DNA of 64,000 nt from Burkholderiales bacterium (GTDB lineage: Bacteria; Pseudomonadota; Gammaproteobacteria; Burkholderiales; SG8-41), in assembly GCA_019634975.1 (NCBI GenBank), contig JAHCAI010000005.1, positions 177,719 through 241,718 of the forward strand, read 5' to 3'. The translations under genes were made by a program, and so were the position numbers. Of the stretch, positions 1,857 through 60,053 are shown piece by piece; the stretch's first letter is position 1; the number at the start of each line of letters is the position of its first letter. The notes below the pieces were generated by a model that saw only the letters and a list, made by a program, of their open reading frames with translations, was not told the DNA's origin and did not search any database.

Positions 1857-2534
1857 ATGACCACACTTCTCGAAACCATCGAACTCGAAACCGCCAAAAA
1901 CCCCACCGCCGCCGTGATCTGGATGCACGGCCTCGGCGCCGACGGCAATGACTTCGTGCCCATCGTCAACGAGCTCGACCTCGCCGGGGCACCGGGCATC
2001 CGCTTCGTGTTCCCGCATGCGCCGATGCGGCCGGTGACCATCAACAACGGCTACGTCATGCGCGCCTGGTACGACGTATCCTTCGGCGACCTCGAGGGAC
2101 GCTCGCGCAAGGCCGACGAAAAAGGTGTGCGCGAATCGCAGGCGCAGATCGGCGAGCTGATTGAACGCGAAATCGAGCGCGGCATCGCGGCGGACAAAAT
2201 CGTGCTTGCCGGTTTCTCGCAGGGCGGCGCGGTTGCGCTGCAGACCGGCCTGCGCCATCCGGAAAAACTCGCCGGGGTGATGGCGCTGTCCACCTACCTG
2301 CCGCTCGCCGAGAGCTTCGCGCAGGAGGCGGCGCCGGCCAATGCCAGGACCTCCGTGTTCATGGCCCACGGCACCCACGACCCGGTGGTTCCCTACGCGA
2401 TGGGCAGCGGTTCACGCGACCTGCTGGCGCGGTCCGGCTACGCCGTCGAGTGGCACGAGTATCCGATGCAGCACTCGGTGTGCATGGAGGAAGTCGCCGA
2501 CATCAGCCGCTGGCTGGTGCGGGTGCTGGGCTAA
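1857..2534 (+). CDS. Carboxylesterase / phospholipase family alpha/beta hydrolase
   Basis: 225 aa. Contains WMHGLGADGNDF, the nucleophile elbow GFSQGG, and a late HGTHDPVV...H pattern typical of carboxylesterase II-type enzymes. Confidence 0.85.
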   Translation: MTTLLETIELETAKNPTAAVIWMHGLGADGNDFVPIVNELDLAGAPGIRFVFPHAPMRPVTINNGYVMRAWYDVSFGDLEGRSRKADEKGVRESQAQIGELIEREIERGIAADKIVLAGFSQGGAVALQTGLRHPEKLAGVMALSTYLPLAESFAQEAAPANARTSVFMAHGTHDPVVPYAMGSGSRDLLARSGYAVEWHEYPMQHSVCMEEVADISRWLVRVLG

Positions 2535-2558
2535 GGCGCCCTTTCATCCCCGGGCTTA

Positions 2559-3323
2559 CTAGAACGAGAACTTCAGCTTCGGGCCCATGTTGACCTGGGG
2601 CTGCGGCTTGGGCTGCTCGACCTGCCTGACGTAGATGTCGTAGAGCAGCAGCCAGCGACGGGTGTCGGGATCGGCCACCGGCTCCACGCCGTGGAAGGAA
2701 TTGTCGGTCTTGAAAAACGCAAACAGCGAGTTCGGCATGAACGGCATGGTACGCAGCCGGGAGAACTGGTCGCGCTGGTGATGCGGGCCGCCCGGACACC
2801 TGAAATCGAGGTCGTTCGGCACGTAAATCGAAGTGCCCAGGTGTTTTTGCGATTCATCAGGCGGCAGATAGAACAGCATGGTCACCACCTTGCGCGGCGC
2901 ATCGGTGTGCGGCCCCAGCTTGTAATTGGTAACGTCCTGAACCAGCAGCAATTCGTCGTTGAATTGCACCGACTGCCCGTTGAAACGCTCCTGGATGAAA
3001 GGCTGGAACTTGTGCAGCACGAGGGATGAAAACCTTCCGGCGGTCATCCAGTCACGGAAATCGCTCCAGAATCTCCGCTTTGATTCAGGCAGCGTTTCCA
3101 GGTGCTTGTCCTCGAAGCCGAGAACGAAACGTTCCTTGTAGCCCTTGACCGGACGCGCCTGCTCGATCGGAACCATCGCTTCCGGGTCGGGCATGTTGTG
3201 CTGGAGCTCGCGGTAAAAATCCCCGGGGAACACTTCGGGTATGAAAAAGTGGGGAAACGGAAACATGTTGAACTGCTCATTGCCCACTTTGTATGCCAAC
3301 TGAAGTTCAGCGTCGGAAAACAT
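2559..3323 (-). CDS. Hypothetical protein, 2OG-Fe(II) oxygenase-like
   Basis: ORF 2559-3404. The likely start is ATG 3323 (MFSDAELQ), overlapping the upstream gene stop by 17 nt. There is an HxD...H pattern (LGPHTDAP ... NSFHGVEP) in a beta-rich context. Function is not established. Confidence 0.55.
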   Translation of the reverse strand: MFSDAELQLAYKVGNEQFNMFPFPHFFIPEVFPGDFYRELQHNMPDPEAMVPIEQARPVKGYKERFVLGFEDKHLETLPESKRRFWSDFRDWMTAGRFSSLVLHKFQPFIQERFNGQSVQFNDELLLVQDVTNYKLGPHTDAPRKVVTMLFYLPPDESQKHLGTSIYVPNDLDFRCPGGPHHQRDQFSRLRTMPFMPNSLFAFFKTDNSFHGVEPVADPDTRRWLLLYDIYVRQVEQPKPQPQVNMGPKLKFSF

Positions 3324-4071
3324 GCTCTGCAACTCCCTTGAAATCTCCTGACTTGCGTTCGGCGCGCGCAACTTGAGCCGGATCGTGCCTGAGACCCATC
3401 GCATTGAGCTCCCGCACCATCGCGCGGTGCTCCTCCAGATTCAGGTTGGTCTCGATCAATACCGACCGTACCGCAGGGTTCGCCAGCGTCTTGCGCGCAC
3501 CGGCAACAACCTTGTGCTCGAAGCCGTCAACGTCGATCTTGAAATGGTTTGGCACCGGAATAGCCCCCTCCGCGACCAGTTCGTCGAGCGTGCGGGCAAT
3601 ACATCCCTGCGTGAACAGCGCCTTCAGCGGCCGCAGATGGGCGTCCAGCGGTTCGTCCACGGCATGGCAGGAACCGCCGACGCGCATGTCCGCCATGTGC
3701 AGGTCGAACAGACCCGATTTGTCGGAAAGCCCCATGCAATAGGCTTTCACGCGGTCGGCAAGCCCGTTCATGAGGATGTTGCGATTGAGCAGGGCGTAAT
3801 TCTGGGCCTCGGGTTCAAGCGCATAGACGCGGGTGCCCCGGGTTGCGGCCGCCCAGATCGTGTACATGCCGACATTGGCGCCGCAATCGAGCAGGATGTC
3901 GTCCTGCCGGAAGGTCTCGATCCATTCCAGCGTCCAGGGTTCCTTCTGGTAGATCGACTCGACCCTCCACAGGGTCAGGGTGCTCGGCGTCGCGAACTTC
4001 ATGACCTTGCCCGCGTGCTCGATTTCGCAGCTTGGATTCAGGCGTTCGTATTCCTGCAGCGTCAGGCTCAT
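3307..4071 (-). CDS. FkbM-family SAM-dependent methyltransferase
   Basis: 254 aa. Has the SAM-binding LLDCGANVGMYT...VYALEP motif and the C-terminal FKIDVDGFE motif typical of the FkbM family. Confidence 0.75.
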   Translation of the reverse strand: MSLTLQEYERLNPSCEIEHAGKVMKFATPSTLTLWRVESIYQKEPWTLEWIETFRQDDILLDCGANVGMYTIWAAATRGTRVYALEPEAQNYALLNRNILMNGLADRVKAYCMGLSDKSGLFDLHMADMRVGGSCHAVDEPLDAHLRPLKALFTQGCIARTLDELVAEGAIPVPNHFKIDVDGFEHKVVAGARKTLANPAVRSVLIETNLNLEEHRAMVRELNAMGLRHDPAQVARAERKSGDFKGVAEHVFRR

Positions 4072-4238
4072 GTGCTCCGGATTTTCAGGTTGCCCCGCCC
4101 TTAGGCGGTCGCGGGAATTCTATACCAAGGCCCCTCATCCGCCATCAATTACCCAGCAAACGACGGCAATTTTGTAAAATTGCCGGGTTTTGGCCAATGA
4201 CTGCCGTCGCAGCCGCGACTTTTTTGCTGGAGACCCGG

Positions 4239-5438
4239 ATGACCCAACCCCTGGATGGCGTGCGCATCATCGACCTGAGCTCGGTGGTGATGGGACCGTT
4301 TGCGACGCAGCTGCTCGGCGACCTTGGCGCCGACGTGGTGAAGGTCGAGCCGCCCGACGGCGACATCCTGCGCCACATCGCGCCGATGAAGCATCCGGCC
4401 ATGGGCCACATCTACCTGCACCACAACCGCAACAAGCGCTCGATCGTGCTCGACCTGAAGAAACCCGAGGGCCTCGAAGCGCTGCACAAGCTGCTGAAGA
4501 CCGCCGACGTGCTGTTCTACAACGTGCGGCCGCAGGCGATGAAGCGGCTGAAGCTCTCCTACGAGGAAGTCGCCGCGATCAATCCGCAGATCATCTATGT
4601 CGGCGCCTACGGCTTCAGCCAGCGCGGACCCTATGCCGCCCAGCCGGCCTACGACGACCTGATCCAGGGCATGTCGGCGATGCCGGCGCTGTTCCACGAG
4701 GCCGGCGCCTCGGCGCCGCGCTACGCGCCGCTGGCGATCGCCGACCGCATCACCGGGCTTGCCGCGGTCAATGCCGTCACCACCGCGCTCTTCGCGCGCT
4801 GCCGCACCGGCAAGGGACAGGCGGTCGAGGTGCCGATGTTCGAGACCGTGACCCAGATGGTGCTTGCCGACCACATGGGCGGCTTCACCTTTGATCCGCC
4901 CGAGGGCGGCTACGGCTACGCGCGCATGCTCGCCGAGCACCGCGCGCCGTACCAGACGAGGGACGGCTACATGTGCGTGCTGATCTACAACGACAAGCAC
5001 TGGCGCGCCTTCCTGAAGCTGGTCGGCCGCCCGGAGATGTTCGAGCAGGATCCGCGCTTCGGCAGCCACGAGGCGCGCTCGCGCAACATCGCCGAGGTCT
5101 ACGCCTTCGCCGCCGAACAGCTGAAGCAGCGCACGAATGCCGAGTGGGAAAAGCTGCTGCGCGAGGCGGACATCCCGTCGGCGCCGATGAAGACCGTGGG
5201 CGACGTGCTCAACGATCCGCACCTTGCTGCCACCGGCTTCTTCAAGACCTCGGAGCATCCGAGCGAGGGCCGGCTGCGCGAAATGACCCTCGCCAGCCAC
5301 TGGTCCGGCGCCGACCCGATGCCCCACCGCCCGGCACCGCGGCTCGGCGAACACAGCGCGGAAATCCTGCGCGAGGCGGGTTACGGCGACGCCGACATCC
5401 GGCGCATGGCTGCGGCGGGAGTTACCAAGCTGGCCTGA
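4239..5438 (+). CDS. Family III CoA-transferase (CaiB/BaiF)
   Basis: ORF 4032-5438. The sensible start is ATG 4239 (MTQPLDGVRIIDLSSVVMGPFATQLLGDLGADVVKVEPP). Family III hallmarks run throughout (GYDDLIQ, IADRITG). Confidence 0.88.
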   Translation: MTQPLDGVRIIDLSSVVMGPFATQLLGDLGADVVKVEPPDGDILRHIAPMKHPAMGHIYLHHNRNKRSIVLDLKKPEGLEALHKLLKTADVLFYNVRPQAMKRLKLSYEEVAAINPQIIYVGAYGFSQRGPYAAQPAYDDLIQGMSAMPALFHEAGASAPRYAPLAIADRITGLAAVNAVTTALFARCRTGKGQAVEVPMFETVTQMVLADHMGGFTFDPPEGGYGYARMLAEHRAPYQTRDGYMCVLIYNDKHWRAFLKLVGRPEMFEQDPRFGSHEARSRNIAEVYAFAAEQLKQRTNAEWEKLLREADIPSAPMKTVGDVLNDPHLAATGFFKTSEHPSEGRLREMTLASHWSGADPMPHRPAPRLGEHSAEILREAGYGDADIRRMAAAGVTKLA

Positions 5439-5455
5439 AGCCTGCCCCAGGCTTC

Positions 5456-5615
5456 TAGCCCTGATGGAGCGCAGCGGAATCCGGGGAAGTCCTTGAAGTA
5501 GGCCACCACAGTCCCGGACTCCGGCCTGCGGCCCTCCTCCGGGCTACTCAACCGAGATATCCCCGGGGTTGCAGCCCGGATGCGCCCGCAAGGAAGTCTT
5601 CCCGGGAAAGAGCAC
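5456..5615. repeat. REP-like palindromic unit cluster (GTAGCCCGGATG..GGAATCCGGGG family)
   Basis: Units lie in opposite orientation at 5456-5486 (tagccctgatggagcgcagcggaatccgggg) and 5510-5548 (reverse: agtagcccggaggagggccgcaggccggagtccgggact), with a third degenerate unit at 5562-5615. The same family occurs at 15983-16075. Confidence 0.6.
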
Positions 5616-5645
5616 AGCGAAATCCAGGGAGTGGCCCCACTCGAC

Positions 5646-6095
5646 TCACAACTGGCGGCGATACTGGATGAACCCGGAGCGCTCGGCGACCTGGTCGTAG
5701 AGCCTGCGCGCCGTGGCATTCGACTCCTGCGTCATCCAGTACACCCGCGGCGAACCGGCCTCCTGCGCACGTTCATAGACCGCTTCGATCAGCGCACGTC
5801 CGACGCCCTGCCCGCGCATCTCCGCCGCGGTATACAGATCCTGCAGGTAACACACCGGCGCCAGCATCGCGGTATTGCGGTGGAACAGGTAATGAACCAG
5901 GCCCACCAGCCTGCCGTCGCGCTCGGCGACCACGGCATGCATCGGCTCGTAGACATCGAAGAAACGCGCCCAGGTGATACGCGTGACCTCTCCCGGCACC
6001 CTGCGTTCATAGAAGCTGTTGTAACCCTCCCACAACGGCAGCCATTGTTCGAAATCCGCGGGCATCGCAGAACGGATGACGGGTTTAACGGGCAC
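5646..6095 (-). CDS. GNAT-family N-acetyltransferase
   Basis: 149 aa. Has the acetyl-CoA binding motif LQDLYTAAEMRGQGVGRALIEAV and a C-terminal NATARRLYD. Confidence 0.85.
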   Translation of the reverse strand: MPVKPVIRSAMPADFEQWLPLWEGYNSFYERRVPGEVTRITWARFFDVYEPMHAVVAERDGRLVGLVHYLFHRNTAMLAPVCYLQDLYTAAEMRGQGVGRALIEAVYERAQEAGSPRVYWMTQESNATARRLYDQVAERSGFIQYRRQL

Positions 6096-6143
6096 GACGG
6101 CTCCTCATTGCGGGGTACACGGCAACGCTCATGGTAACAAGTC

Positions 6144-6989
6144 TCAGGTTCGGCGCGACGGCGTGCTGATCACCAGCGCAACGCCGCCCAGCACCGCCAC
6201 CGACGCCAGCACCAGGCGCAGCGTCAGCTGTTCGTCAAGAAAGACAATGGCGCCGAAGGTGGCGATCAGCGGCACGCTAAGCTGCAGCGTGGCGGCGGTG
6301 GCAGCCTTCAGCCCCGGCAGCGCGGCATACCAGATCGCATAACCGAGGCCGGAGGCCAGCGCGCCGGAGGCCACGGCATGCAGCGCTCCGGTCGCATCCC
6401 AGCTCGCGGCATCGATCAGCAGCAGGCTGCAGGCGAGCGCCAGAGGCACGGTTCGCAAAAAATTTCCGGCGGTGGCGCTGACCGGATCGCCGCTGCCGCG
6501 GCCGCGCAGCGAGTAGACGCCCCAGGACATGCCGGCGAAGATCATCAGCAGGGCGCCGCCCGGCGGCGGCGCGGACAGCCCCGGCAGCAGCAGCCCGCCA
6601 AGGCCGGCGAGCGCTACCGCAAGGCCCAGCCACTGCAGCCCGCGCATGCGTTCGCCGCGCCACAGTCCCCAGCCGGTCATCGTCATCTGCACCGCGCCGA
6701 ACAGCAGCAGTGCGCCGGCGGCTGCGGTCAGGCTGCGGTAGGCGAGCGAAAACGCGATGGCATAGGCAAACAGTGCCGCCGCGGAGCGCCAGTCGCCGGC
6801 CAGTGCCGGGCCGCCGCGGCGCAGCACGACGATCAGCCACAGTGTCAGCGCGCCCGAAACCAGCCGGATGGTGGTGAAGCTTGCCGCGTCGATCGCGGTG
6901 TCGCGCAGCGCGGCGCGGCAGAACAGGGAATTGGCTGCGAAGGCGAGCAGCGCCAGCGCGGTCAGCATCACCACGCGTGCGCGTGTCAC
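6144..6989 (-). CDS. DMT-superfamily (EamA-like) transporter
   Basis: 281 aa. About 10 hydrophobic helices with an internally duplicated EamA-like organisation, Ala/Leu/Gly rich. Confidence 0.8.
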   Translation of the reverse strand: MTRARVVMLTALALLAFAANSLFCRAALRDTAIDAASFTTIRLVSGALTLWLIVVLRRGGPALAGDWRSAAALFAYAIAFSLAYRSLTAAAGALLLFGAVQMTMTGWGLWRGERMRGLQWLGLAVALAGLGGLLLPGLSAPPPGGALLMIFAGMSWGVYSLRGRGSGDPVSATAGNFLRTVPLALACSLLLIDAASWDATGALHAVASGALASGLGYAIWYAALPGLKAATAATLQLSVPLIATFGAIVFLDEQLTLRLVLASVAVLGGVALVISTPSRRT

Positions 6990-7018
6990 CGTGCAGTCGC
7001 CGCCGTCATGCCGGCGAC

Positions 7019-8572
7019 TCAGCTGCTGCGCGCCATGACCTTGAACATCGCCCAGTCGAAGTCCTCACCGCCCTCCGCAAGCCGCGAAGGCATCAGCAGG
7101 TACGGCTTGTGGTTGACCGTCATGTCCAGGCTGTCGCGGGAATTGTAGGTGCTCTCGCGCAGCACCAGGCCGATCTCGCCGTTTCTGTCCGGCGTCGTCG
7201 ACAGCAGCAGCGCGGAGTCCGTGGGCTCCGCCGGTGCCGAAGCAAAAGCGCCGCCGGACTTGCCGATGCGCACCGGGATCGCGATTTTCGACAGCAGCTG
7301 CACTCCGACGCGGCGCTGCTGGTGCTCATCGCGGGTGACGCGGCGGATGATGCCCACGCCCCAGTGCTTCGCGATCTCGGTTTTCACGCCGACCAGAGCG
7401 CCGACGCGCACCCAGTCGCTTTTCGCCGCGGGGATGATCGCGCCATAGCCGCCGTCGCTGACATTCTCGACGATCCAGCTCTCGGCGGTGCTCTCCGCAG
7501 CGGCCGGCGCGCTGAAGTCGAGGTCATCGCTGTTCTCGGGATCGAGCACGCGCAGGATTTCCGCCATGCCGTGCAGCACCGTCATGCGCGTTGCGGTGTG
7601 CCGGCGCTCGGCACCGCGCGCCGGCGCATCATCCGACCAGTACAGGCCGAGATGGGCCAGCACCGGCAGCACCACGGCCTTGTCGTAGCTGCCGCCGAGG
7701 TGCACGCCGGTGGGAACCGCCCCGGTCTCGCGGACCGCCGCCTCGACCTTCCGCAACTGCGCCAGCGCCTCGCCGGCGCCGAAAAAGCGCACCGTGGCCG
7801 GCAACGGCTTGCCGCCGATCACGCGGAACGGCGGCCTGCCGCCGGCGATGTCGAAGGCGTAACCGCAGCCGGGTCCGGGCGCGCGCGCGATGCGGAAATC
7901 CGGAGAGAAATGCGCCACCGCGCGCTCGGCAATTTCCTGGCGCAGCGGACTCAGGCCGTCGGTCGAGGACACGCTGAGCATCAGTCCCTTCAGCAATTCC
8001 TGGCGCACCGAGCCGCCGCCATGCGATCCGGGATAGATCTGGATCGCCGCATCGGCAAACCCGGCCGCCTCCGCCACCTGGTAGAGGCGCCCCATGTCCG
8101 ACCACACCCGCGGCTCCACCGGACCGTAGCGCACGAGGATCCATTTCAGCTGCAGCGTCATCGCGCGCAGCGTGCGCGCGACGATCACCGGCAGGCTCTT
8201 GCGGATCGCGGTGCCGGTCTGTCCGGATTCAAAGCGGGCGACGCATTCGAGGTAAGCCTCGCTGAGCGCCTTCCAGAATCCGTAGCTGCCGGTCCACAGC
8301 CGGTGTTCCTGGAATTTCTGCTGGCGCGCGGTGCCGAAATAATCCTGCGCCAGCCGGCGCTGGTGGTTCTTCGCGGCCGCATCGAGCAGGTCGACGTTCT
8401 CGAACAGGCGCTCGGCGCGGAACGCCTTGGTGTCGCGCAGCGTCTCCAGCCAATGGGTGATTTCCGCCAGCGCCTTCAGCGGATCGACCGGCAGTTCCTC
8501 GATGATCTCCCGCGCGCGCCTTGCGTCCGCCATCGGGTGATCGATTTTTTCGCCCTTCAGGAAGCCGAGCAT
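7019..8572 (-). CDS. Hypothetical 517-aa protein with possible C-terminal PilZ-like domain
   Basis: Long ORF with non-repetitive composition. The C-terminal third contains ERRHTATRMTV, then ~35 aa later ENVSDGGYG, resembling the PilZ RxxxR ... (D/N)xSxxG pattern (the first motif is not canonical). Confidence 0.6.
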   Translation of the reverse strand: MLGFLKGEKIDHPMADARRAREIIEELPVDPLKALAEITHWLETLRDTKAFRAERLFENVDLLDAAAKNHQRRLAQDYFGTARQQKFQEHRLWTGSYGFWKALSEAYLECVARFESGQTGTAIRKSLPVIVARTLRAMTLQLKWILVRYGPVEPRVWSDMGRLYQVAEAAGFADAAIQIYPGSHGGGSVRQELLKGLMLSVSSTDGLSPLRQEIAERAVAHFSPDFRIARAPGPGCGYAFDIAGGRPPFRVIGGKPLPATVRFFGAGEALAQLRKVEAAVRETGAVPTGVHLGGSYDKAVVLPVLAHLGLYWSDDAPARGAERRHTATRMTVLHGMAEILRVLDPENSDDLDFSAPAAAESTAESWIVENVSDGGYGAIIPAAKSDWVRVGALVGVKTEIAKHWGVGIIRRVTRDEHQQRRVGVQLLSKIAIPVRIGKSGGAFASAPAEPTDSALLLSTTPDRNGEIGLVLRESTYNSRDSLDMTVNHKPYLLMPSRLAEGGEDFDWAMFKVMARSS

Positions 8573-50884: not shown

Positions 50885-50930
50885 TGGTGCTGACGAGAGG
50901 AGTCGAACCTCCGACCTACTGATTACGAAT
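50885..50930 (-). pseudogene. 3' half (positions 31-76) of host tRNA-Thr(CGU), displaced by the island
   Basis: The reverse strand reads ATTCGTAATCAGTAGGTCGGAGGTTCGACTCCTCTCGTCAGCACCA. Its acceptor 3' strand CGTCAGC and anticodon-stem strand TCAGT pair perfectly with the 5' half at 59564-59602. Confidence 0.85.
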
Positions 50931-50974
50931 TAATTTTTAAGGACAAAAAGAATTCTTAGAAATCAATGGCTCGT

Positions 50975-51235
50975 AATGCTATAGGGGGCAGTATTTGTCA
51001 AATAAAATCAATCGGTTAATTGCATTATTCGGTTCACAAACGACTCCCAATGTCTTCGGGCTACATCACCCCATTTGCCTACTATTTGCCTACTACACAG
51101 CATGAATTCTCATGGTTAACTGCCGTAAGTAACTGGCTATCAACCGTGTTGGTCGCCGATACCCCCATTTGGGTACTGCGACGATGGCCAGTTCCGGTCT
51201 GGCGAAACACGGATGCCTGAAATTGTTTGAAGCCC
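50975..51235 (+). pseudogene. Integrase-proximal arm plus truncated, frame-disrupted integrase 5' remnant
   Basis: 50975-51235 aligns by eye with 54767-~55010 (the upstream region and first ~40 codons of integrase 54891-56129). Both start AATGCTATAGGGG...TGTCAAATAAA...TGCATT...CTATTTGCC, and the ATGs (51102 / 54891) sit at equivalent distances. In the remnant TTAACTGCCGTAAG aligns with TTAACAGCCGCGAG and CCGATACCCCC with CCGATACCGGT. No intact frame remains. Confidence 0.65.
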
Positions 51236-51248
51236 GGTAGTGCGTTGG

Positions 51249-52661
51249 CTACATGAAGCTCCGGAAATCATAAACCGTATCGACCATGTCTGGATTCTGC
51301 TGAATGATTCTGGCAAATCGGCTTGAATACACCAGTGTAACCGGCAACTTCTTGTAAAGCGTATTGTTGTTCCAGTCCATTTTCGTCAAGCCGAGAATGC
51401 CCGCACAGGTGTCGTGCCACCCCCCAGCACCACTAAAACGCCTTACAAGTATCGGGGACGGAGTTGGTTTTAGAGGGCCTTCTTTGTATACGTTGTAGTG
51501 CGCGGCCTGCATGTGTACGCCTACAACACTCCCTTGCGTCCACAACAAGACCTCGCTCCCCTTCAGCGGCATATAGGTCCCCCGTGGCACAGGATATCGG
51601 TGGGGCTGTGGCGGATTTTTATTGTCGTAACGCATGGCTTTCCAGTCAGTCTCCCGGACGATTTGCACAAGTTCAACTTCGGTAGCATCGTTGAAGCTGT
51701 CGAGTGCCCCAAGTATCTCTTCCTCCTTGAACTCAGTGTTCTTGTGAATGGTGATCTTGGAGGGGAGCCTGCCAGCGTGTCCGTGTTGATAGATTCGGAG
51801 GCTGCGGGAGAGCACGGATTGCATTTCATAGTAAGAGAGATATGGATTATGACTGCGGTCTTTCGTGAACTCCTTCGCATCGTAAGCAACGAACTGGAAG
51901 CCAGTTCCATCAGGATCAAACACCTGACTGCAGCAAGTGCTGTATTGATTTCCGTCCTTGTTAGATTTAATTGCGTAGCCAATGCCGATATAAGCTTCCT
52001 TGGGTGCGAGGCCAGTCAATTTCCAAGGTAGGCCGTTCGCCTTTGCATACAAAGCAACGCTTAAACCCCACATTACGTTCGCTCTGCATGTTCTCTCCAG
52101 ACTTTGCTGTCGAATAATCTGGAGGGGAATTCCCAATGGTGCAGTGAACGCCTTCAGGTAATCGTGAAAGTCAAAATTTTCACCCTCGAAGCACGCCTCC
52201 CAGCTCTGAGGAAGATAAAGCATCGCCACATCAAATTGACCGCGCGACGGCAAGAGTTGAGAAATGTTCTGAAGCAATTCATTTGCGAGCGAAAATTTGT
52301 CGGCATTGCCCGCATAACGCTCCAATTGATCGGATAAGGGCACGGTGATCGCGCTATCGACATCAGAGACCGGAATTCGGAACAGCTTTTCAAATCCGGG
52401 GTACTCTGGGTAGTAGTTAGTTGCCTCTCGCGGCTTTGCGGTTTTTCCGAGTTCTTTGATCAAGCCCTGTATCGCGCGTACATGCTGACGCGGCGCAAGA
52501 ATTGCGAGTCGAATTTTCGACGGCACGCCAAACTTTAGACCATATGGTCCGTGCTCGATCAAGCCGCGGAGAGGGTGAGTGTCCACCTTCTTAGCGTGGA
52601 ACATCAGCTCCGGCTCCGGCAGCGTGGTATAGCTAGTGAGTTCACCGGCACGATTAGTCAT
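51249..52661 (-). CDS. Short prokaryotic Argonaute (MID-PIWI only, catalytically degenerate)
   Basis: 470 aa. MID pocket-like HDYLK...LQIIRQ...[17 protein letters not shown]-like half with [13 protein letters not shown] and [13 protein letters not shown] at the positions of the DEDX residues. Its ATG overlaps the upstream SIR2 gene stop (ATGA). Confidence 0.85.
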
Positions 52662-54418
52662 TGACGCGCCCGCCTGCAGAAAGCAGTTTCAGTCCCAACA
52701 GTGAAGGCGGGGTTCTCTAGTTCGTCCCCCCTATCGAATGGCCGCAATTGGACTGTATTGGTCTGATCGGCGGTCCCGAGCAAAATTTGACACCATGCTG
52801 ACAGGAGCTTATCTGTCTTGGCGTTAAAACGATCTGACCGGCGCTCGTCGAGTAGCGCTGTTGCGTCCTGCCGGGCCCACTTGGGCCATATCCAGATATC
52901 TGGCGTGACCATAAGCCAGCATCGGCCATCCTTCTCTTCGATTGCTATCTGCGCTGCTTCCGCCCATCCAACCTGTTCTTGCTCTGGATGCTCCGGCGTG
53001 GCTTTCGTAAAAAGTCCCGGAACGCTGCCATGTACCTTGCCGAGAACCTGAGACAATGGTTGCAGGTCCGACTGATCTTCGGCGTTTCGGTCTGCGATAA
53101 GAAATACACGGTGATGCGCGGAGCGAAGTAATAGTGACTTCCCGCGAGCAAGAGTGCGTCCCAGCGCCTTTTCAAGAAAGGCTTTTAGATATAGGTGATC
53201 TTTGAGATTTTGCGTTGCCACTGAAATATCATACGGCTGTACGCCAGCGTAACGATCACCGAACACCTGCTTCGCCACGTCCCTGCCGCCCCACATAAGA
53301 ACTGCTTCGCCTTTCGTAAGGATTAGCTGGTTTTTCGCTATCCTCTCAGCCTCATTAAGTTCGTTCCATTCCGGAATTACTGAAAACTTAGCTTCAAGAC
53401 ACTTATCCGGCAGTATTAGAGGTAGCGCATTTACACGCACTATCGGCCCACTGTTTCCGGGCGTGGGCATCGCAATGCTCACTTGGGAGTGCTGGGTCTT
53501 TTGCACCTTGGCGATGAATCTCGGATCCTTGTCAGGAATGTTTCGCCAGAGCCGCAAAAGCAATGTGTCGAACGTTTCAATTGAAATGTACTCAGCCTTA
53601 ACGCCCCGGGCTTTAGCAGCATCAAGCAGTCGCTGAACTGACGCAGGTGCTGAGCTGCCAATCCCGGTCCAGTAAAGGCCGTGGGGAAACGGATTGCTCG
53701 TCTGAAGCACGGATTGCAGCAAGGTCATGACGATGCTATCTCGGCCGCTGTATCCAGTTACGATCAGCCCAAATCTGTTGCAAGCATTGACAAAGCAGCG
53801 ACCCAACTCAGCATCATGTGAACGAAGGTCATCTGTTAGATTTTTGATGCTCTCGTACCGAAAATCGCCATGTAGCTTGCAATAAATTGGGTAGTTTTCG
53901 TTGTCCAGTGCGGCGTTTGCTGCGTATGAGCCTTCCAGATGGAATGCGGATAGGGACAACCCTGCAACTTCAGCAACGGATTTCTCAACAACGCTGTCAA
54001 AGTTCGTCGTGAATACCACTCGCGCATGGCCCATCGCCATAAGCGCTCCAAGTACGCGGTTTCCAACTGACAAAGCAACGCGATCCTCAGATAGCATCGC
54101 TCGTAAGTAAGCACTTTGTCTTTCATGATCTGAGCCGAATATGCGTTCAAAATAAGTTGAATATTCGTCGTCGGCCCAAGCATCAGGAAAGCCTTTGGAC
54201 AGCATGTATGACTGAATCTTGCTTTTTACTGCATCGTTCTGAATATCCTGTTGCGTGACCTCTTGATTTTCTTCCCTGCAGTAATGGCGCCGCTTCAGGT
54301 CCCAGATGATGTCCGTCGCAGTCGGCAGACCGGAGGACCGTGACGACCCTGCTCCAAGAAACCACGCAAAACGTTGAGGGCGCTCCGTGATAATTGATAT
54401 TAGCTCACTGTAGTCCAT
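52658..54418 (-). CDS. SIR2-APAZ protein (NADase effector partner of short pAgo)
   Basis: 586 aa. SIR2-type motifs [13 protein letters not shown] (aa 20-32), VVFTTNFD (aa 134-141), CKLHGD (aa 180-185) and GYSGRD, then a ~330-aa non-SIR2 C-terminal region of APAZ size. Confidence 0.85.
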
Positions 54419-54890
54419 GGCTCTGCAGATTTCCCTCAGTCAAGCGGTAGCAATAATACGGCAACCAAAGCACTGTAGCAGATGCCGGCAAAGATCACTG
54501 TCAGGTTGCAATCGCACAATTCCCTCTCGCAATCAAAACTTGTTGATTACGCGTAAGTTGGGTTGGATTAAAAATCGCCCAGTCATAACTCAATAAATCA
54601 CTGCTGCAAATTACGCTTACCGCAGATCGCGGCCCTCCATCATCCCGCCACGGCATTGCTTGCCGCCCGCTTTAAGCAAACACCGCTAAAAAATATGAAC
54701 GAAATGCGAATTGCATATTTAGTCTGGTCATCGACCACATAAGTATTGTTATAAACAACATTTTCCAATGCTATAGGGGTTATGGATTGTCAAATAAATC
54801 AAGAACTTAACTGCATTTTTTGCTTGACCCCTGACTACTAACGTCTTAGGATAACTATTCACTTCGCTCACTATTTGCCAGTATTTTCGG

Positions 54891-56129
54891 ATGTCGGTAT
54901 TCAAATTAACAGCCGCGAGAATTGCCGCCCTACCGATACCGGTATTAGGTCAGGACTTTTATCGCGACTCCAAGCAACCGGGCTTCGGCGTCCGGGTTAG
55001 CCCGGGCGGAACCATTTCCTTTTTCGCCGAAGGTCGCGTTAACGGCAAAACCAGACGCATCACAATTGGCCCTTGGCCTCAACTGACGGTTGAGGAGGCA
55101 AGGAGAATCGCCAAGGTCATCCTCAGCGAACTCATACGAGGGATTGACCGAAAAGCCGAGGAAAGAAACGCGCTGGTCAAAACCGTAACGCTTGCGGAAG
55201 CATTCAAGCAGTTCAAAGAAACACGAAAATCTCTCGCAGACCGCACAAAAGCCGATTACACCTACATGTTCAACCGGCTAATTCCAGATTGGATGAAATT
55301 GCCGTGGGTATCGATCACTCGGGAAATGGTACTCAAGCGCCACGCTGAGGTGGGCAAGGTAAACGGCTGGGCAACCGCGAACCACCTGATGCGGGCGCTG
55401 GGGTCAGTGTTCCGCTCCTCAATGAAATACTACCGGGCACCAGATGGCTCGATGTTCGTCCAAGAGTGCCCGACATCAATCCTGAGCGATGCCCACGCAT
55501 GGTTTCCAAAAAACACCAAGGATTCCTATATCAAGCCTCATCAGCTCAAGGCTTGGTTCGATGCAGTGCAATTAATTGCAAACAAAGTCGCCGCCGACTA
55601 TCTGATATTTCTGGTCCTGACCGGCCTGAGGCGATCTGAGGGCGCCAGTCTGCGGTGGGATTGTGTTGATCTGATAAGCCGCACACTCACCATCGAGATT
55701 ACCAAGAACAAGCGGAAACACGTGATTCCAATTTCGGATTACCTCCTTACCATGCTGACCCGTCTCAAGGAAAACGCGATCAACGATTTCGTATTCCCCG
55801 GCAATGGCAAGACCGAGCATATCGTGGAAATAAAGAAAAACGTTGCTTCTGTAGTCAAGGCATCGCAGGTGAGTTTCACCCTTCATGACCTGAGAAGGAC
55901 GTTTATTACCATCGCAGAAAGCCTCGACATCTCCGCCTACGCGGTAAAGCGTCTAGCGAATCACTCCATGGGCGGTGATGTAACTGCAACGCATTACATT
56001 GTTTTCGATATCGAACGCCTGCGCGACCCGATGGAAAAGATCAACCGCTACATCCTTCGAAACGCCGGGATACTGCCCACCGCCGAAGTTGTTCCGCTAA
56101 CCGCTCAAGCCTCGCAGGTCGCGGCCTAA
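54891..56129 (+). CDS. Tyrosine recombinase, P4-like integrase with N-terminal arm-binding domain
   Basis: 412 aa. N-terminal FYRDSKQPGFGVRVSPGGTISFF (DUF4102-type). Catalytic R (TGLRRSE), HxxR (LHDLRRTF) and H...Y (ANHSMGGDVTATHY). Confidence 0.9.
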   Translation: MSVFKLTAARIAALPIPVLGQDFYRDSKQPGFGVRVSPGGTISFFAEGRVNGKTRRITIGPWPQLTVEEARRIAKVILSELIRGIDRKAEERNALVKTVTLAEAFKQFKETRKSLADRTKADYTYMFNRLIPDWMKLPWVSITREMVLKRHAEVGKVNGWATANHLMRALGSVFRSSMKYYRAPDGSMFVQECPTSILSDAHAWFPKNTKDSYIKPHQLKAWFDAVQLIANKVAADYLIFLVLTGLRRSEGASLRWDCVDLISRTLTIEITKNKRKHVIPISDYLLTMLTRLKENAINDFVFPGNGKTEHIVEIKKNVASVVKASQVSFTLHDLRRTFITIAESLDISAYAVKRLANHSMGGDVTATHYIVFDIERLRDPMEKINRYILRNAGILPTAEVVPLTAQASQVAA

Positions 56130-56218
56130 TTTTTTACCGAAATTTTGATGAGACGTGAGTAACAGACATGAATTGACATAGCTTTATCTCACCCCCCCCG
56201 TAAACAGGGGGAAATTCT

Positions 56219-56281
56219 GGGCCATCGCAAAGGAGTGCGGCACACCTCAAAGAGGTGAACTTCTTTGCGATGGCCCTTTTT
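56219..56281 (+). terminator. Long-stem rho-independent terminator after the integrase
   Basis: gggccatcgcaaag ... ctttgcgatggccc followed by T5. The inner loop holds a second small hairpin (cacctc-aaa-gaggtg). Confidence 0.65.
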
Positions 56282-56305
56282 GTTTGACACCTGAAGGAGA
56301 CGCAC

Positions 56306-56473
56306 ATGAATAGACCAGTAATTCAAAAGGAAATCCCCACGAAGTATCTGCGGGAGGCCGAGGCAACCGCCTACCTCGGATTCAAGTCGCCTCGCACGCT
56401 TCGGAACATGCGGTTCCGGGGTAATGGCCCGTCATTTCTAAAACAGGGAAGGCACGTCATCTACCCGACGTGA
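56306..56473 (+). pseudogene. AlpA/Xis-like small HTH gene, C-terminus replaced by the IS insertion
   Basis: RBS gaaggaga. MNRPVIQKEIPTKYLREAEATAYLGFKSPRTLRNMRFRGNGPSFLKQGRHVIYPT*. The TGA stop is the first 3 nt of the IS left inverted repeat. The same frame resumes after the IS (57661-57699: TSWASKQPREKH*) just before a terminator. Confidence 0.65.
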
Positions 56474-56534
56474 TCCCCAAGAACAGTAGCACTTGAAATT
56501 GGAGTCCGATCTATTATGCAACGGGAGGTCGGAC

Positions 56535-56798
56535 ATGAAGAAGCGGTTCACGGAAGAGCAGATCATCGGTTTCCTGCGGGAAGCTGAGGCCGGAGTGGCA
56601 GTTAAGGATCTGTGCCGGCGGCACGGGTTCTCGGAGGCGAGCTACTACTTGTGGAAGGCGAAGTTCGGCGGCATGAGCGTGCCGGAGGCAAAGCGGCTGA
56701 AGGCGCTGGAGGCCGAGAACGCGCGGCTGAAGAAGCTCCTGGCCGAGACGCTGCTGGAAGCGGAGATCACCAAGGAGGCCCTGCGCCGAAAGTGGTGA
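56535..56798 (+). CDS. IS3-family transposase OrfA (HTH)
   Basis: MKKRFTEEQIIGFLREAEAGVAVKDLCRRHGFSEASYYLWKAKFGGMSV...leucine zipper. RBS gggagg. Confidence 0.88.
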   Translation: MKKRFTEEQIIGFLREAEAGVAVKDLCRRHGFSEASYYLWKAKFGGMSVPEAKRLKALEAENARLKKLLAETLLEAEITKEALRRKW

Positions 56799-57649
56799 CC
56801 GTGCCAGCGCGGCGCGAGCTGGTGCGGTATGCGCAGTCGAAGGGTTTGAGCGAACGCCGGGCATTGCGGCTGGCGTGTTTGAGCCCGAGCGTGCTGCGCT
56901 ACGAGCGCAAGGATGACGGCAATGGGCCGCTCAGGGAGCGGATTGCTGCCCTGGCCCATCACCATCGGCGGCACGGCTACCGGATGATCCACTTGCGGCT
57001 CACCCAGGAGGGGTGGGCGGTGAACCTGAAGCGGGTGCGACGGCTGTATCGGGAGCAGAACCTGATGGTGCGGCGGCGCAAACGGAAGAAGGTTGGATCT
57101 GGAGAGCGGCAGCCGCTGGTGCGGCCGGCCCGGGCGAACGAGGTGTGGAGCATGGACTTCGTGTTTGACCGGCTGGCGAGCGGACGGTCGTTGAAGTGTT
57201 TGACGGTGGTGGACGATGCCACGCAGGAAGCGGTGGCGATTGCGCCGGACACGGCGATCTCGGGGATGGCGGTGGCGAGGATACTGGAGCAATTGAAGGT
57301 GAGCCGCGGATTGCCCAGGGTGATTCGCTCGGACAACGGACGGGAGTTCTGCGGACGGGCGATGGCAGTCTGGGCGCACGAGAACGGCGTGCAGTTGCGC
57401 TTCATCGAGCCGGGCAAGCCCAACCAGAACGCCTACGTCGAGTCCTTCAATGGGAGACTGCGCGACGAATGCCTGAACGAGCACTGGTTCACGACCCTGC
57501 CGCATGCACGGGCGGTGATCGAGGAATGGCGCCGGGATTACAACGAGCGGCGGCCGAAGAAGCAGTTGGGCGGGTTGCCGCCGGCGGTTTACGCCGCACG
57601 CATGGCAGCCCAATTGAACAGCGCGGACTATAATGCAAACTGCTACTAA
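56789..57649 (+). CDS. IS3-family transposase OrfB (DDE domain), expressed as OrfAB by -1 frameshift
   Basis: The -1 frame (track ORF 56612-57649) contains WSMDFVFD, VIRSDNGREF and YVESFNGRLRDECLN (DDE). The likely slip is at cgA AAG (56789-56792), just before the orfA stop. Confidence 0.85.
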   Translation, partial: KVVTVPARRELVRYAQSKGLSERRALRLACLSPSVLRYERKDDGNGPLRERIAALAHHHRRHGYRMIHLRLTQEGWAVNLKRVRRLYREQNLMVRRRKRKKVGSGERQPLVRPARANEVWSMDFVFDRLASGRSLKCLTVVDDATQEAVAIAPDTAISGMAVARILEQLKVSRGLPRVIRSDNGREFCGRAMAVWAHENGVQLRFIEPGKPNQNAYVESFNGRLRDECLNEHWFTTLPHARAVIEEWRRDYNERRPKKQLGGLPPAVYAARMAAQLNSADYNANCY

Positions 57650-57702
57650 AATTGGGGATCACGTCGTGGGCTTCAAAGCAGCCGCGAGAAAAGCATTGAA
57701 AT

Positions 57703-57737
57703 AAAAAAGGGCCGTCGTGTGACGGCCCTTCTTGTTT
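57703..57737. terminator. Bidirectional terminator hairpin
   Basis: A6-gggccgtc-gtgt-gacggccc-ttcttgttt. It serves minus-strand gene 57755-58252 (T-run on minus) and the original Xis-like gene end on plus. Confidence 0.7.
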
Positions 57738-57754
57738 GGTGCTGACGAAAATAA

Positions 57755-58252
57755 TTAGGAAGTCGCAAGCCGCTGATAGCCTTCTTGGCGATCCAGGTTT
57801 TTCAGGATATCTTGTTTTATTGTGTCGCTATTAGATTTACCAATTGAAATCCCTCTTTGCATAGCAAGGGCCTTTAATTCGGCTCGCGATAGTTTTTTTG
57901 ACAAAAGAGCCCGGATTTGCTCATTCGTGAGATTGGGCGGTATTTCGATTGGCTCTCTCTTTGCTTTGCGCGGCCCCTTCTTTCGTCCAGACGACAATAA
58001 GACACGGAGAACTGCATCTGAGGAGGCCGACTCGAGAAACGTAATTACGTGATCGAGATGCTGGATAGTTTCCGCCGTTCGCCCCCCAAAAGATGGGTTT
58101 GTTAGGCCAGCATGCAGATCTTGCAAGGAAGTTATTAACGCAGACAACCCGTTGATAGTTTCCTCTTTCAAATCGGGCTGATTTACCAAATAGAGATCGT
58201 CTCTAATCTGACTTAGCCGAGCGAGGAGATTTGGATTTTTATTGGATTTCAT
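57755..58252 (-). CDS. Hypothetical 165-aa protein; helical N-domain, basic linker, C-terminal SAP/HeH-like motif (putative DNA-binding partner of the ParA-like ATPase)
   Basis: The start lies 2 nt after the ParA-like stop. GRKKGPRKAKREP linker, then LTNEQIRALLSKKLSRAELKALAMQRGISIGKSNSDTIKQDILKNL, reminiscent of SAP/Rho-N/HeH helix-extended-helix motifs. Confidence 0.6.
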   Translation of the reverse strand: MKSNKNPNLLARLSQIRDDLYLVNQPDLKEETINGLSALITSLQDLHAGLTNPSFGGRTAETIQHLDHVITFLESASSDAVLRVLLSSGRKKGPRKAKREPIEIPPNLTNEQIRALLSKKLSRAELKALAMQRGISIGKSNSDTIKQDILKNLDRQEGYQRLATS

Positions 58253-58254
58253 CT

Positions 58255-59166
58255 TTAACCAAGCTTTTCACGAAATTCTTCGGCCATGCGGCGATAAAGC
58301 ACATCATTTTGCGAACCGGAGGAGTTGAGAAACACTGGTAACTGCTCTGTAGTCGCCTCTCGTATGTCTTTGTAATCCTCGGTATGCGTATCGAAACATT
58401 TATCCTTGAAGTTCGGCATTCCTCTGACAATCGCCATTTGCTCCCGCGCCACAATTTGCTGTCGCCCAGCAGTCACATTTACCTTCACAAAGCAGAGGTA
58501 CGAAGGTAGCCTCCTGGCACCCTCGCTATTAGGATCAACGATTTGCTCTGCCAAATTCCTTTCCTTTAATAACTGGCGGACTTTTCGATCTAAAAATGTT
58601 ACGCCAACCGTTGAGAAGTGGTCCGGCATAAGGGTCACCAAATAACCATCGCTCGCGTATAAGGCGTTTTGGGTCGCCAAATAAAGATTTGGCGGGCAAT
58701 CAATCAATACGTAGTCATATTGATCTGCAATTTCTTTTATGGCATTCAAAAGTATCGAGCGTTGATCAAGGTGTGTTTGCGCCACCTCTCGTATCGTTGT
58801 GGCCGCATGCGTCTTTGACTGCAGTCTCAAATCAATATCGAGCAACTCAATAGTAGACGGAACCAAATCGACATTCGATAACTCTGGACGAGCCATCGGT
58901 TTTTTCCAAATTATGTCTTCTAGCGGACTCGTCTTCTGATCGAGATACGCGCTGTAAACTGTCTCTAAAGAACCATTAACCTTGACTCTATGCTCCCAAC
59001 TTTTGAAATCACAGCACAAGAATGTCAGATTTGTTTGGGGATCAGCATCGATCAATAAAACCTTCTTTTTTGGCTCGAACATTGCAAGGGCACAGCCAAT
59101 ATGAAAAGTAGTTGTCGTCTTACCGACTCCCCCTTTGTAGTTAATGAACGAAATTACCTTTGCCAC
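58255..59166 (-). CDS. ParA/MinD-family (deviant Walker A) ATPase
   Basis: GTG start after GAGGAGG. VISFINYKGGVGKTTTT (KGGxxK[ST]), LLIDADPQ, YDYVLIDCPP. Confidence 0.85.
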   Translation of the reverse strand: MAKVISFINYKGGVGKTTTTFHIGCALAMFEPKKKVLLIDADPQTNLTFLCCDFKSWEHRVKVNGSLETVYSAYLDQKTSPLEDIIWKKPMARPELSNVDLVPSTIELLDIDLRLQSKTHAATTIREVAQTHLDQRSILLNAIKEIADQYDYVLIDCPPNLYLATQNALYASDGYLVTLMPDHFSTVGVTFLDRKVRQLLKERNLAEQIVDPNSEGARRLPSYLCFVKVNVTAGRQQIVAREQMAIVRGMPNFKDKCFDTHTEDYKDIREATTEQLPVFLNSSGSQNDVLYRRMAEEFREKLG

Positions 59167-59332
59167 TATATCCTCCTCGCTGGCCCAGAATAGAAAAGGC
59201 CTGTGGAATTGATATTAATTGCATAAAGCATGCCCTTCACCGAATGAGTTCTTCGATAATCGGTGACCTCATGTATTGAGGCGCCCTCAACAGGCGCAAC
59301 CCTGCTTACAGGATACTCTGCTCTATGCAGAT

Positions 59333-59362
59333 AAAAAAAATGACCGCCACAAGGGCCGTCAT
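59333..59362 (-). terminator. Rho-independent terminator after the island-borne tRNA
   Basis: The minus strand reads atgacggcc-cttgt-ggcggtcat (one mismatch) followed by T8. Confidence 0.65.
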
Positions 59363-59371
59363 TTTTAGGTT

Positions 59372-59447
59372 TGGTGCCGGAAATAGGAGTCGAACCTACG
59401 ACCTTCGCATTACGAATGCGCTGCTCTACCAACTGAGCTATTCCGGC
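59372..59447 (-). tRNA. tRNA-Thr (anticodon CGU), complete, island-borne
   Basis: GCCGGAATAGCTCAGTTGGTAGAGCAGCGCATTCGTAATGCGAAGGTCGTAGGTTCGACTCCTATTTCCGGCACCA. It forms a 76-nt cloverleaf with a perfect acceptor stem, a TTCGACT T-loop and an encoded CCA. Confidence 0.9.
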
Positions 59448-59563
59448 ATTTTCTGCTCTACCGCCTACTATCTGCCTACTTGAAAAGCAGGTTCTTTATA
59501 GAAGTCGCAAAAAAACCTTATCCTTCAATTCCTTATCTCAACCTGCAGGAGGGAGACGTTCTT

Positions 59564-59602
59564 ATTACGAATCAGTTGCTCTACCAACTGAGCTACGTCA
59601 GC
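59564..59602 (-). pseudogene. 5' half (positions 1-39) of host tRNA-Thr(CGU)
   Basis: The reverse strand reads GCTGACGTAGCTCAGTTGGTAGAGCAACTGATTCGTAAT, then non-tRNA sequence (AAGAACGTCTCC...). It complements the 3' half at 50885-50930. Confidence 0.85.
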
Positions 59603-59636
59603 CCGGGGACGCGAATTTTACCGCAAACACCCGTTT

Positions 59637-60053
59637 TCAGGGCGCGCGCACCCTGACGATGACGTCTATGCCCTCGGTTTTCGTGCCGGGCGGCAGGGCG
59701 GGCATGCCGCTGATGGTGAGGTCCCCGGCCGCGATATCGGTGATCTCGCCGGTATCGACGTTGTAGAGATGGTGGTGCGGTTCCGTATTGGGATCGTAAA
59801 ACACCCGTTTCGGATCGACGATCACTTCGCGGATCAGGCCGCGGTCGCGGAAAAGATTCAGCGTGTTGTAAACCGTCGCCTTGGAAGTTTCCGCAAAGCG
59901 CTCGTTGGCGAGCGCGAGAATCCGGTCAGCGGACAGATGCTCACAGCGGCTGAACAGCACATGGGCGATCTCCAGCCGCTGGTGGGTCGGCGAAATGCCG
60001 TGTTCGCGCAAACGCTCGACCAAGGCTTCCCGGCTATAAGACATTGCTTTCAT
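59637..60053 (-). CDS. Fur-family transcriptional regulator (Cys-poor, HHH motif)
   Basis: 138 aa. wHTH region SPTHQRLEIAHVL...SADRIL...SKATVYNTLNLFRDRGLI, then EPHHHLYNVDTGEI. No CxxC pairs. Confidence 0.8.
   Translation of the reverse strand: MKAMSYSREALVERLREHGISPTHQRLEIAHVLFSRCEHLSADRILALANERFAETSKATVYNTLNLFRDRGLIREVIVDPKRVFYDPNTEPHHHLYNVDTGEITDIAAGDLTISGMPALPPGTKTEGIDVIVRVRAP

Follow-up and report, generated by a model that had tools for sequence, protein, structure and literature searches.

We have analyzed a 64-kb stretch of DNA from a Burkholderiales bacterium (contig JAHCAI010000005.1), referred to here as the window, in which an island of 8.6 kb lies inside the host gene for tRNA-Thr(CGU). 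Our reading, to which we give a probability of about 0.8, is that a non-phage island has split the host gene without repairing it and has brought its own replacement tRNA, in the logic of tRNA-dependent lysogeny. The reading is carried by the anatomy of the split gene and its empty counterpart in relatives, a crossover within a short core that regenerates no tRNA, and recurrence of the arrangement in other genomes, with constraint on the element tRNAs, stacking of elements and decay of orphan halves.

A host tRNA gene divided in its anticodon loop

The host gene is present as two separated parts.

59564 to 59602, minus strand: orphan 5′ half of the host tRNA-Thr(CGU), positions 1-39, ending in the core on the side of the left attachment site (attL); established from the sequence as read, rejoining with ARAGORN, and relatives
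59564 to 59572, minus strand: common core ATTCGTAAT at attL, comprising the anticodon loop and its closing pair
50885 to 50930, minus strand: orphan 3′ part of the host tRNA-Thr(CGU), positions 31-76, starting with the core at 50922-50930 (right attachment site, attR)

Direct reading of the sequence gave the same positions for the halves, the core repeats and the island tRNA as a first-pass annotation made from the letters of the window. The 5′ half (59602-59564) reads GCTGACGTAGCTCAGTTGGTAGAGCAACTGATTCGTAAT, i.e., GCTGACG...ATTCGTAAT, and runs on into AAGAACGTCTCC..., which is not tRNA-like and contains no complement to the anticodon stem or the T arm. The 3′ part (50930-50885) reads ATTCGTAATCAGTAGGTCGGAGGTTCGACTCCTCTCGTCAGCACCA, i.e., ATTCGTAATCAGT...CGTCAGCACCA, and is preceded by ...CCTTAAAAATTA. 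The two halves are 8.6 kb apart, and the 9 nt of ATTCGTAAT are all that they share. There are exactly three copies of this core in the window (at 50922, 59409 and 59564), all of them on the minus strand; the chance expectation is 0.16 copies, and none of 100 shuffled sequences reached three.

Rejoining the halves in silico gave a sequence that ARAGORN calls as tRNA-Thr(cgt), as had been proposed. No tRNA was called in either junction alone, and thus neither rebuilds the gene. The island (50931-59563) is low in guanine plus cytosine (GC), with sharp steps exactly at both junctions from 65%-70% GC outside to 45%-52% inside.

The same junctions and island were assembled independently in ENA ERZ2606016 and in several Logan runs, so that the junctions are not an assembly artefact, and contig L142 spans fur, the orphan half, the spacer and the island tRNA. 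This bears on the alternative that the arrangement is a chimera, or the off-target integration of an element that normally rebuilds a cognate tRNA elsewhere. The source of the window is a metagenome-assembled genome, and a related island (L012), with an integrase 49% identical to that of the window, lies beside a CoA-transferase gene without any tRNA, both of which would fit this explanation. However, the sequence derived from the phage-type attachment site (attP) holds no tRNA 3′ portion at all, and the same core has been used by the related islands L010 and L014 and in dozens of other genomes, including isolates and complete genomes. Shared use of the core and the independent assemblies largely refute the alternative, which we consider highly improbable.

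At L012 itself (5680-5860) a homologous P arm abuts the CoA-transferase gene (junction ...GGCATAATTAATTTT...), with no tRNA and no ATTCGTAAT core near this junction; it represents either a different target or insertion at a secondary site. Among the assembly graphs, Logan unitig L140 (SRR12908349) has the final base of the attL core as its own end, and three others (L002, L003 and L005) end about 10 nt past the core inside the island tRNA, marking branch points in the graph. These branch points could be co-existing empty sites or merely tRNA genes of other species in the sample. An empty site in the same population was considered on the basis of the end of L140 and is not established, since a mixed population and the tRNA of another species fit equally well.

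The intact gene in relatives

A comparison with island-free relatives had been suggested, and it reveals the empty site. The rejoined 76-nt tRNA was found intact, with 76/76 identity, in 15 metagenome contigs. A Fur orthologue (74%-94% amino acid identity) lies immediately upstream in 12 of the 15, and a FimT-like gene lies beyond Fur in all nine contigs that reach that far; this fimT-fur locus is syntenic with the window. In L147 and L153 the 30 nt preceding the intact tRNA, with the promoter region, are identical to the window; they include a GTTTGC(G/T)GTAAAAT block that is conserved upstream of the intact tRNA in the relatives. Because the rejoined sequence is intact at a syntenic locus, where the relatives have a single tRNA, the ancestral state was one intact gene that the island interrupted. 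Since both halves in the window are pristine, the island was inserted recently, and the host gene would be restored if it were excised precisely.

In four relatives (L147, L149, L152 and L153) AT-rich DNA, with repeats such as TGTAGACAC, comes directly after the intact GCTGACG-type tRNA. This resembles conventional islands at the 3′ end of a tRNA gene, and the tRNA would therefore be a hotspot for both styles of integration.

The island carries a complete tRNA-Thr(CGU) behind the crossover

Four features lie around the left junction in addition to the orphan half.

59615 to 59620, minus strand: -10 element TAAAAT of the host tRNA promoter, 12 nt upstream of the orphan 5′ half; read directly and conserved in relatives, with a putative function
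59448 to 59563, minus strand: P′ arm and leader, 116 nt between the core and the island tRNA, with arm-type repeats AGTAGGCAGATAGTAGGC at 59463-59480
59372 to 59447, minus strand: complete island-borne tRNA-Thr(CGU), thrW-like, with the core again at 59409-59417; identified by ARAGORN and Rfam
59328 to 59366, minus strand: terminator-like hairpin (-14.6 kcal/mol) and T-run after the island tRNA

The island-borne gene is the sole tRNA called in the 64 kb (tRNA-Thr(cgt); Rfam score 70.5 bits). It is a different tRNA from that of the host, as had been noted. The two agree at 60 of 76 positions when the host gene is rejoined; the D arm, loops and variable region are shared, and the differences lie in the acceptor, anticodon and T stems. 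The likeness to thrW that had been suggested is real, with 72 of 76 positions (94.7%) identical to E. coli thrW. A terminator of its own, as had been noted, is represented by the hairpin and T-run at about 59366-59328. A strict scan of 59150-59800 for promoters and terminators called nothing, the hairpin having been missed by virtue of one mismatch in its stem. The leader of the window (155 nt) is without a terminator, and its fold is not unusual (z = 0.16).

Could the complete tRNA be the regenerated target of a conventional tRNA island, or a native tandem copy, with the halves incidental? Tandem intact tRNA-Thr genes at a similar spacing do exist, mainly in Prevotella, and account for 70 of the at least 119 loci that matched our scan (below). 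However, insertion beside a tandem pair cannot generate the order found here, namely 5′ half, spacer, complete tRNA, island, 3′ half. Moreover, both the spacer and the island tRNA belong to the low-GC side of the step at the junction, what follows the core lacks the tRNA complement noted above, and the relatives have a single intact tRNA at the locus. The junction sequence, the GC step, the ARAGORN results and the single intact gene together refute this explanation, and we give it almost no weight.

A 5′ half closely related to the island tRNA is resident elsewhere. In L159 and L160 the resident half (GCCGGAATAGCTCAGTTGGTAGAGCGGCGC...) is one base different from the 5′ part of the island tRNA (59372-59447), which hints, on sequence likeness, at the kind of host lineage from which the island tRNA may have been captured.

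An attP-like layout after integration

The integrase and the sequences flanking the core comprise the following.

54891 to 56129, plus strand: intact P4-type tyrosine integrase, with Arm-DNA-bind_3 and Phage_integrase domains (Pfam)
50931 to 51094, minus strand: P arm beside attR, with arm-type repeats GCCTACTATTTGCCTACT at 51077-51094; about 90% identical to the arm of L010
54767 to 54879, plus strand: diverged second copy (about 75%) of a segment of the P arm, immediately upstream of int

The integrase has both domains and the length (about 400 aa) that define the P4-type (DUF4102) family, and some 2000 homologues have the same two domains. The tandem arm-type repeat AGTAGGCA(A/G)ATAGTAGGC is present in both arms. 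Since arm repeats flank the 9-bp core on both sides and the integrase is of the P4 type, the island has a complete attP-like layout, in the style of lambda and P4, as it stands after integration.

The segment of the P arm that is duplicated is about 110 nt long (AATGCTATAGGGG...TTGTCAAATAAA...) and occurs in the window at 50975-51090 beside attR and at 54767-54879 upstream of int. A copy upstream of int is also present in L009 (2140-2200), L010 and L012; the copies in L010 are at 60-190 and 6900-6960. Variable defence cargo sits between the two copies in the window and in L010, and L012 has one copy and no cargo. This looks like a cargo hotspot with a repeat of arm or promoter sequence at its borders.

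The carrier is not a phage

Neither virion nor lysis genes were found in the island, and the parts of its relatives that were seen contain no virion genes. The integrase is at most 34% identical to that of any phage record. The relatives encode int, alpA, replication proteins of the HNH, helicase, primase and Rep types, and varied defence genes. From its gene content, then, the carrier is a small non-phage integrative island. L010, from another sample, has an integrase 76% identical and entirely different cargo, and begins with the same tRNA 3′ fragment and core. In L014 (integrase 47% identical) the same core was used in a tRNA-Thr(CGU) with a different acceptor stem, and hence in a different host. 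The contigs L009-L014 gave right junctions or none, and a right junction cannot separate repair from replacement.

The arrangement recurs across Proteobacteria

Species-representative genomes were scanned for the pattern of a Thr(CGU) 5′ half with the core at its end and, 105-135 nt further on, a Thr-type D arm. This returned at least 119 loci, a count that by design covers only loci with a second Thr-type D arm after the core and so, among elements, only those that bring a replacement tRNA. Among the matches listed, 70 were ordinary tandem tRNA-Thr genes, mostly from Prevotella, and 49 of the 119 had an orphan 5′ fragment followed by a complete tRNA-Thr(cgt). At least 32 loci of Alpha-, Beta- and Gammaproteobacteria diverge immediately after ATTCGTAAT and have a complete tRNA-Thr(CGU) 98-125 nt further on. 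Their spacers fall into at least five unrelated sequence families, and at every proteobacterial locus examined the anticodon of the element tRNA is that of the destroyed gene. Isolates with this layout include Comamonas badia, C. faecalis, HdN1, Bordetella ansorpii, Achromobacter veterisilvae and Hoeflea alexandrii; HdN1 (FP929140) and Cohaesibacter (CP121339) are complete genomes that have it.

One spacer family of about 115 nt is found in Comamonas, Azoarcus, Thauera, Acidovorax, Bordetella, Achromobacter, Accumulibacter, a metagenome-assembled genome of Lysobacteraceae, and HdN1. Two IMG/VR contigs show this family as elements of about 11 kb, in which the tRNA is followed by small genes and a P4-alpha-like primase, with int lying at the far end. 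When viral contigs were searched for the free attP form, the matches were two integrated copies and a tRNA array that is unrelated; none was excised.

The cloverleaf is maintained in the 14 distinct element tRNAs, with 96.6% of cells paired and double changes in 11 of 21 pairs. None of 500 shuffles reached these values, and controls slid along the sequence were 31%-47% paired. The anticodon loop, which is also the core, is invariant.

Two of the loci illustrate what can follow integration. L031 (Comamonas badia DSM 17552, 2406-7690) contains a complete 5.2-kb element in the order orphan 5′ half, 114-nt spacer, tRNA and terminator, four TGTAGGCA arm repeats, core, and a 3′ half that matches the 5′ half but is mutated. 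The 3′ half has decayed, with mismatches in the T stem and anticodon stem and ATCA in place of ACCA, and the integrase is reduced to a remnant beside attR. On this sequence the foreign tRNA is now the putative resident gene. L023 (Comamonas faecalis JCM 17561, 160-512) is a nested stack of two orphan halves and a third, complete tRNA-Thr(CGU): the host 5′ half, a 115-nt spacer, an element-type tRNA 5′ half cut after ATTCGTAA, an 87-nt spacer of another family, and the complete tRNA. As read from its sequence, the stack shows directly that further elements use element tRNAs as targets. The first-pass annotation had proposed that the island tRNA of the window, since it contains the core, could be a secondary attachment site; the stack upholds this by analogy, as the tRNA of one element was there split by a second element, which added a third tRNA. 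Many resident halves are, in addition, the same as element-type tRNAs of other genomes, which fits serial replacement, or capture from such hosts.

The results of the scan suggest that the arrangement is common rather than exceptional, belonging to a widespread and largely unrecognised guild of elements that replace their target and do not repair it.

Firmicutes may have a counterpart with a different crossover point. Nine Oscillospiraceae and other clostridial loci (L051, L055, L068, L080, L085, L103, L109, L112 and L114, which include the complete genome of Oscillibacter valericigenes) contain an orphan tRNA-Thr(CGU) fragment that continues past the crossover point used above, through the anticodon stem and the variable loop, and departs from the tRNA sequence in the T arm, with a complete tRNA-Thr(CGU) about 100 nt later.

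A proposed mechanism, and points against it

That the element replaces its target, as had been proposed, is borne out by the intact ancestral gene (76/76), the attP-like layout and the recurrence in many genomes. In the mechanism that we propose, the P4-type integrase recombined the 9-bp core of attP with the anticodon loop of the host tRNA-Thr(CGU) gene. As attP shares only the core with the tRNA, integration left two dead halves, 8.6 kb apart in the window. The island tRNA-Thr(CGU), 116 nt behind the crossover and directly after the P′ arm, would most likely take over the decoding of ACG. It stands downstream of the intact host promoter with no terminator between, and read-through would probably yield a precursor from which normal processing releases the tRNA. 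Precise excision should rebuild the host gene. Once the halves, or int and alpA, had decayed, the foreign tRNA would be the resident gene, amounting to horizontal replacement of tRNA-Thr(CGU).

The addiction-like stabilisation that the first-pass annotation had envisaged survives in part. Dependence on the island tRNA would be expected if the island were lost imprecisely, or where decay has set in, L031 being an example and the window copy with its truncated alpA (below) perhaps another. It would not apply to precise excision, which restores the host gene from halves that are still pristine.

The same logic has been described in tRNA-dependent lysogeny by the actinobacteriophages Fionnbharth/K4, Cluster L, CQ2, DL and Gaia (Guerrero-Bustamante and Hatfull, mBio 2024, PMC10865867), and the arrangement is therefore less unprecedented than the annotation had implied. 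In both cases a tyrosine integrase with an arm-binding domain acts at arm-type sites that flank a short core in a host tRNA (8-17 bp in the phages, 9 bp in the island), neither junction contains a functional tRNA, and the element carries a tRNA with the same anticodon. The island differs in its carrier, which is not a phage and has int, alpA and defence cargo; in its hosts, which are Proteobacteria; in its target, tRNA-Thr(CGU), where the core is the anticodon loop itself; and in the position of the replacement tRNA, about 100-120 nt from the crossover and directly downstream of the host promoter. Four of six features of tRNA-dependent lysogeny are present in the island (an arm-binding integrase with arm repeats, an attB in a tRNA, a short core with no rebuilding, and a tRNA of the same anticodon), and the carrier is not a temperate phage. 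The island would thus work like tRNA-dependent lysogeny but is not lysogeny, and it is by analogy with the phage system (PMC10865867) that its tRNA would be required and would compensate for the destroyed gene. The principle is already published; what is new here is the non-phage carrier, the hosts, the target, and the tRNA wired beside the crossover.

Related cases are known in prophages, one of them in Proteobacteria. Two Sinorhizobium meliloti prophages (Lo5R7ANS-like) inactivate tRNA-Leu(UAG) and carry a replacement, described by the authors as "still poorly described" (PMC11476347), and prophage Lj965 of Lactobacillus johnsonii is an observational case of tRNA replacement in Firmicutes (cited in PMC10865867). 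As in the island, integration destroys a tRNA gene, and an isoacceptor of foreign origin on the element takes its place. In contrast, these are prophages that use another tRNA, and the accounts describe two strains only and report no element family, stacking or promoter arrangement. A limited literature search found no description of non-phage islands of this kind, of a tRNA-Thr(CGU) case, of a fixed attP-tRNA module or of stacking.

Conventional tRNA islands (Williams, 2002; Islander, PMC4383910; e.g., P22 and CP4-6 at thrW) share the integrase family, the crossover in the anticodon loop, and the placing of int beside one attachment arm, followed by alpA. However, they carry the 3′ part of the tRNA (about 40-50 bp of identity) and regenerate the gene, whereas the island has 9 bp and no regeneration. 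The regeneration by which Islander defines its islands is absent: there is no 3′ tRNA portion at the junction, and a separate whole gene instead. Tools that seek a regenerated tRNA and a displaced 3′ fragment would probably misplace or miss such islands.

A further explanation is that the island tRNA serves another purpose, such as evasion of anticodon nucleases or the codon supply of the island, that the host tRNA is dispensable, and that the matching isoacceptor reflects the site preference of the integrase. Phage tRNAs have been proposed to counter defences that target tRNA (discussed in PMC10865867), element tRNAs do differ from host tRNAs in their stems, and dispensability of tRNA-Thr(CGU) would fit. 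Yet the anticodon agrees with that of the destroyed gene at all the proteobacterial loci examined, and across at least five spacer families, unrelated to one another, the element tRNA keeps a fixed distance from the crossover (98-125 nt). The anticodon loop, the usual target of such nucleases, is identical in host and element tRNAs, and in mycobacteria a phage tRNA has been shown to be required for viable integrants (PMC10865867). We therefore think this explanation unlikely, if less so than those considered above.

Our preferred reading, of replacement without repair, has several points against it beyond the selectivity of the scan. We infer both that the host tRNA is essential and that the island is immobile at present. 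tRNA-Thr(CGU) may be dispensable where tRNA-Thr(UGU) reads ACG, which would weaken the argument from compensation, and a second tRNA-Thr(CGU) gene elsewhere in the host genome is possible. Carriage of a tRNA within the island's own subfamily is seen in the window and suggested by the resemblance of arm-type repeats in L041. As for the promoter, matches of 9-11 out of 12 lie upstream of many orphan halves at the scan loci, often with TATAAT 10-14 nt before the tRNA, and matches within the spacers are at most 7 out of 12 and often placed incompatibly with the tRNA start; these scores come from a relaxed scheme of our own that is crude and indicative only. The alphaproteobacterial spacers hold TATAGT, which could be a promoter of their own, and the window spacer holds TATAAA, which leaves room for one. 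The anatomy is consistent with transcription of the island tRNA from the captured host promoter, which is probable.

A wider reading is more tentative, and we would place it somewhat below even odds. It holds that a large uncatalogued guild of elements with P4-type integrases, in Alpha-, Beta- and Gammaproteobacteria and including satellite-like and mobilisable islands that carry defence genes, obligatorily destroys tRNA-Thr(CGU) and installs its own copy about 100-120 nt behind the crossover under the captured host promoter, so that it would be expressed in the integrated state only. With the core present in every element tRNA, such elements would stack and serially overwrite one another; they would be a main route of horizontal turnover of this tRNA gene, and would be missed by island finders based on regeneration.

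On our preferred reading, a strategy of replacement that has been demonstrated experimentally only in actinobacteriophages extends to non-phage defence islands and to Proteobacteria. It would provide a concrete mechanism for the horizontal replacement of a core gene of translation, and would explain thrW-like tRNA-Thr in unrelated lineages. It predicts that expression of the incoming tRNA is coupled to integration, and it exposes a blind spot in tools that map islands by a regenerated tRNA. The compact module of int, attP and tRNA could also be put to use as an integration vector, one that itself selects for being maintained.

Backbone and cargo of the island

From right to left on the plus strand the island comprises the P′ arm and tRNA, a ParA-like gene with that of a 165-aa protein, an IS3 element, alpA, int, SIR2-APAZ, Argonaute and the P arm. 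The genes are as follows, in addition to int.

56306 to 56473, plus strand: alpA-like (HTH_17) gene, truncated after residue 53 by IS3
56466 to 57666, plus strand: IS3-family insertion sequence (IS) with OrfA/OrfB, terminal inverted repeats of about 50 nt and host-like GC
51249 to 52661, minus strand: short prokaryotic Argonaute (pAgo; MID-PIWI), class I, defence cargo
52658 to 54418, minus strand: SIR2-APAZ partner of the short pAgo, defence cargo
58255 to 59166, minus strand: ParA-like P-loop ATPase, gene 1 of a cargo cassette
57755 to 58252, minus strand: 165-aa protein, always paired with the ParA-like gene, gene 2 of the cassette

The IS has an OrfA with HTH_Tnp_1, an OrfB with rve, and terminal inverted repeats, as expected of the IS3 family; no target-site duplication was seen around it. 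The truncated AlpA is 90.6% identical to residues 1-53 of the L009 protein. The remainder of alpA is absent, nothing beyond the IS continuing it, and in all the relatives an intact alpA follows int. The replication genes of the relatives are also missing from the island. The cut in alpA and the missing backbone suggest an IS-mediated adjacent deletion, possibly with immobilisation of the island. Because part of its backbone is lost, the window copy is probably impaired in excision, and now immobile.

The genes at 51249-54418 are predicted to form a defence system of short pAgo and SIR2-APAZ. PADLOC matches both over their full length (pAgo_I, 1.3e-193; Aga_SIR2-PNTD, 3.9e-179), and the genes overlap. 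The likeness to SPARSA-type short pAgo/SIR2-APAZ systems concerns the cargo only and is unrelated to the mechanism of integration.

The 165-aa protein had no family match in Pfam, PADLOC or PHROG. The ParA-like gene was tried as a handle to the left junctions of relatives and was rejected for this purpose; the pair proved to be an independently travelling cassette with no tRNA nearby. The cassette (57755-59166, minus strand) is present with 75%-89% identity in L015-L019, in very different contexts and phyla, and often lies among defence or toxin genes. It may be an uncharacterised module for defence or stabilisation.

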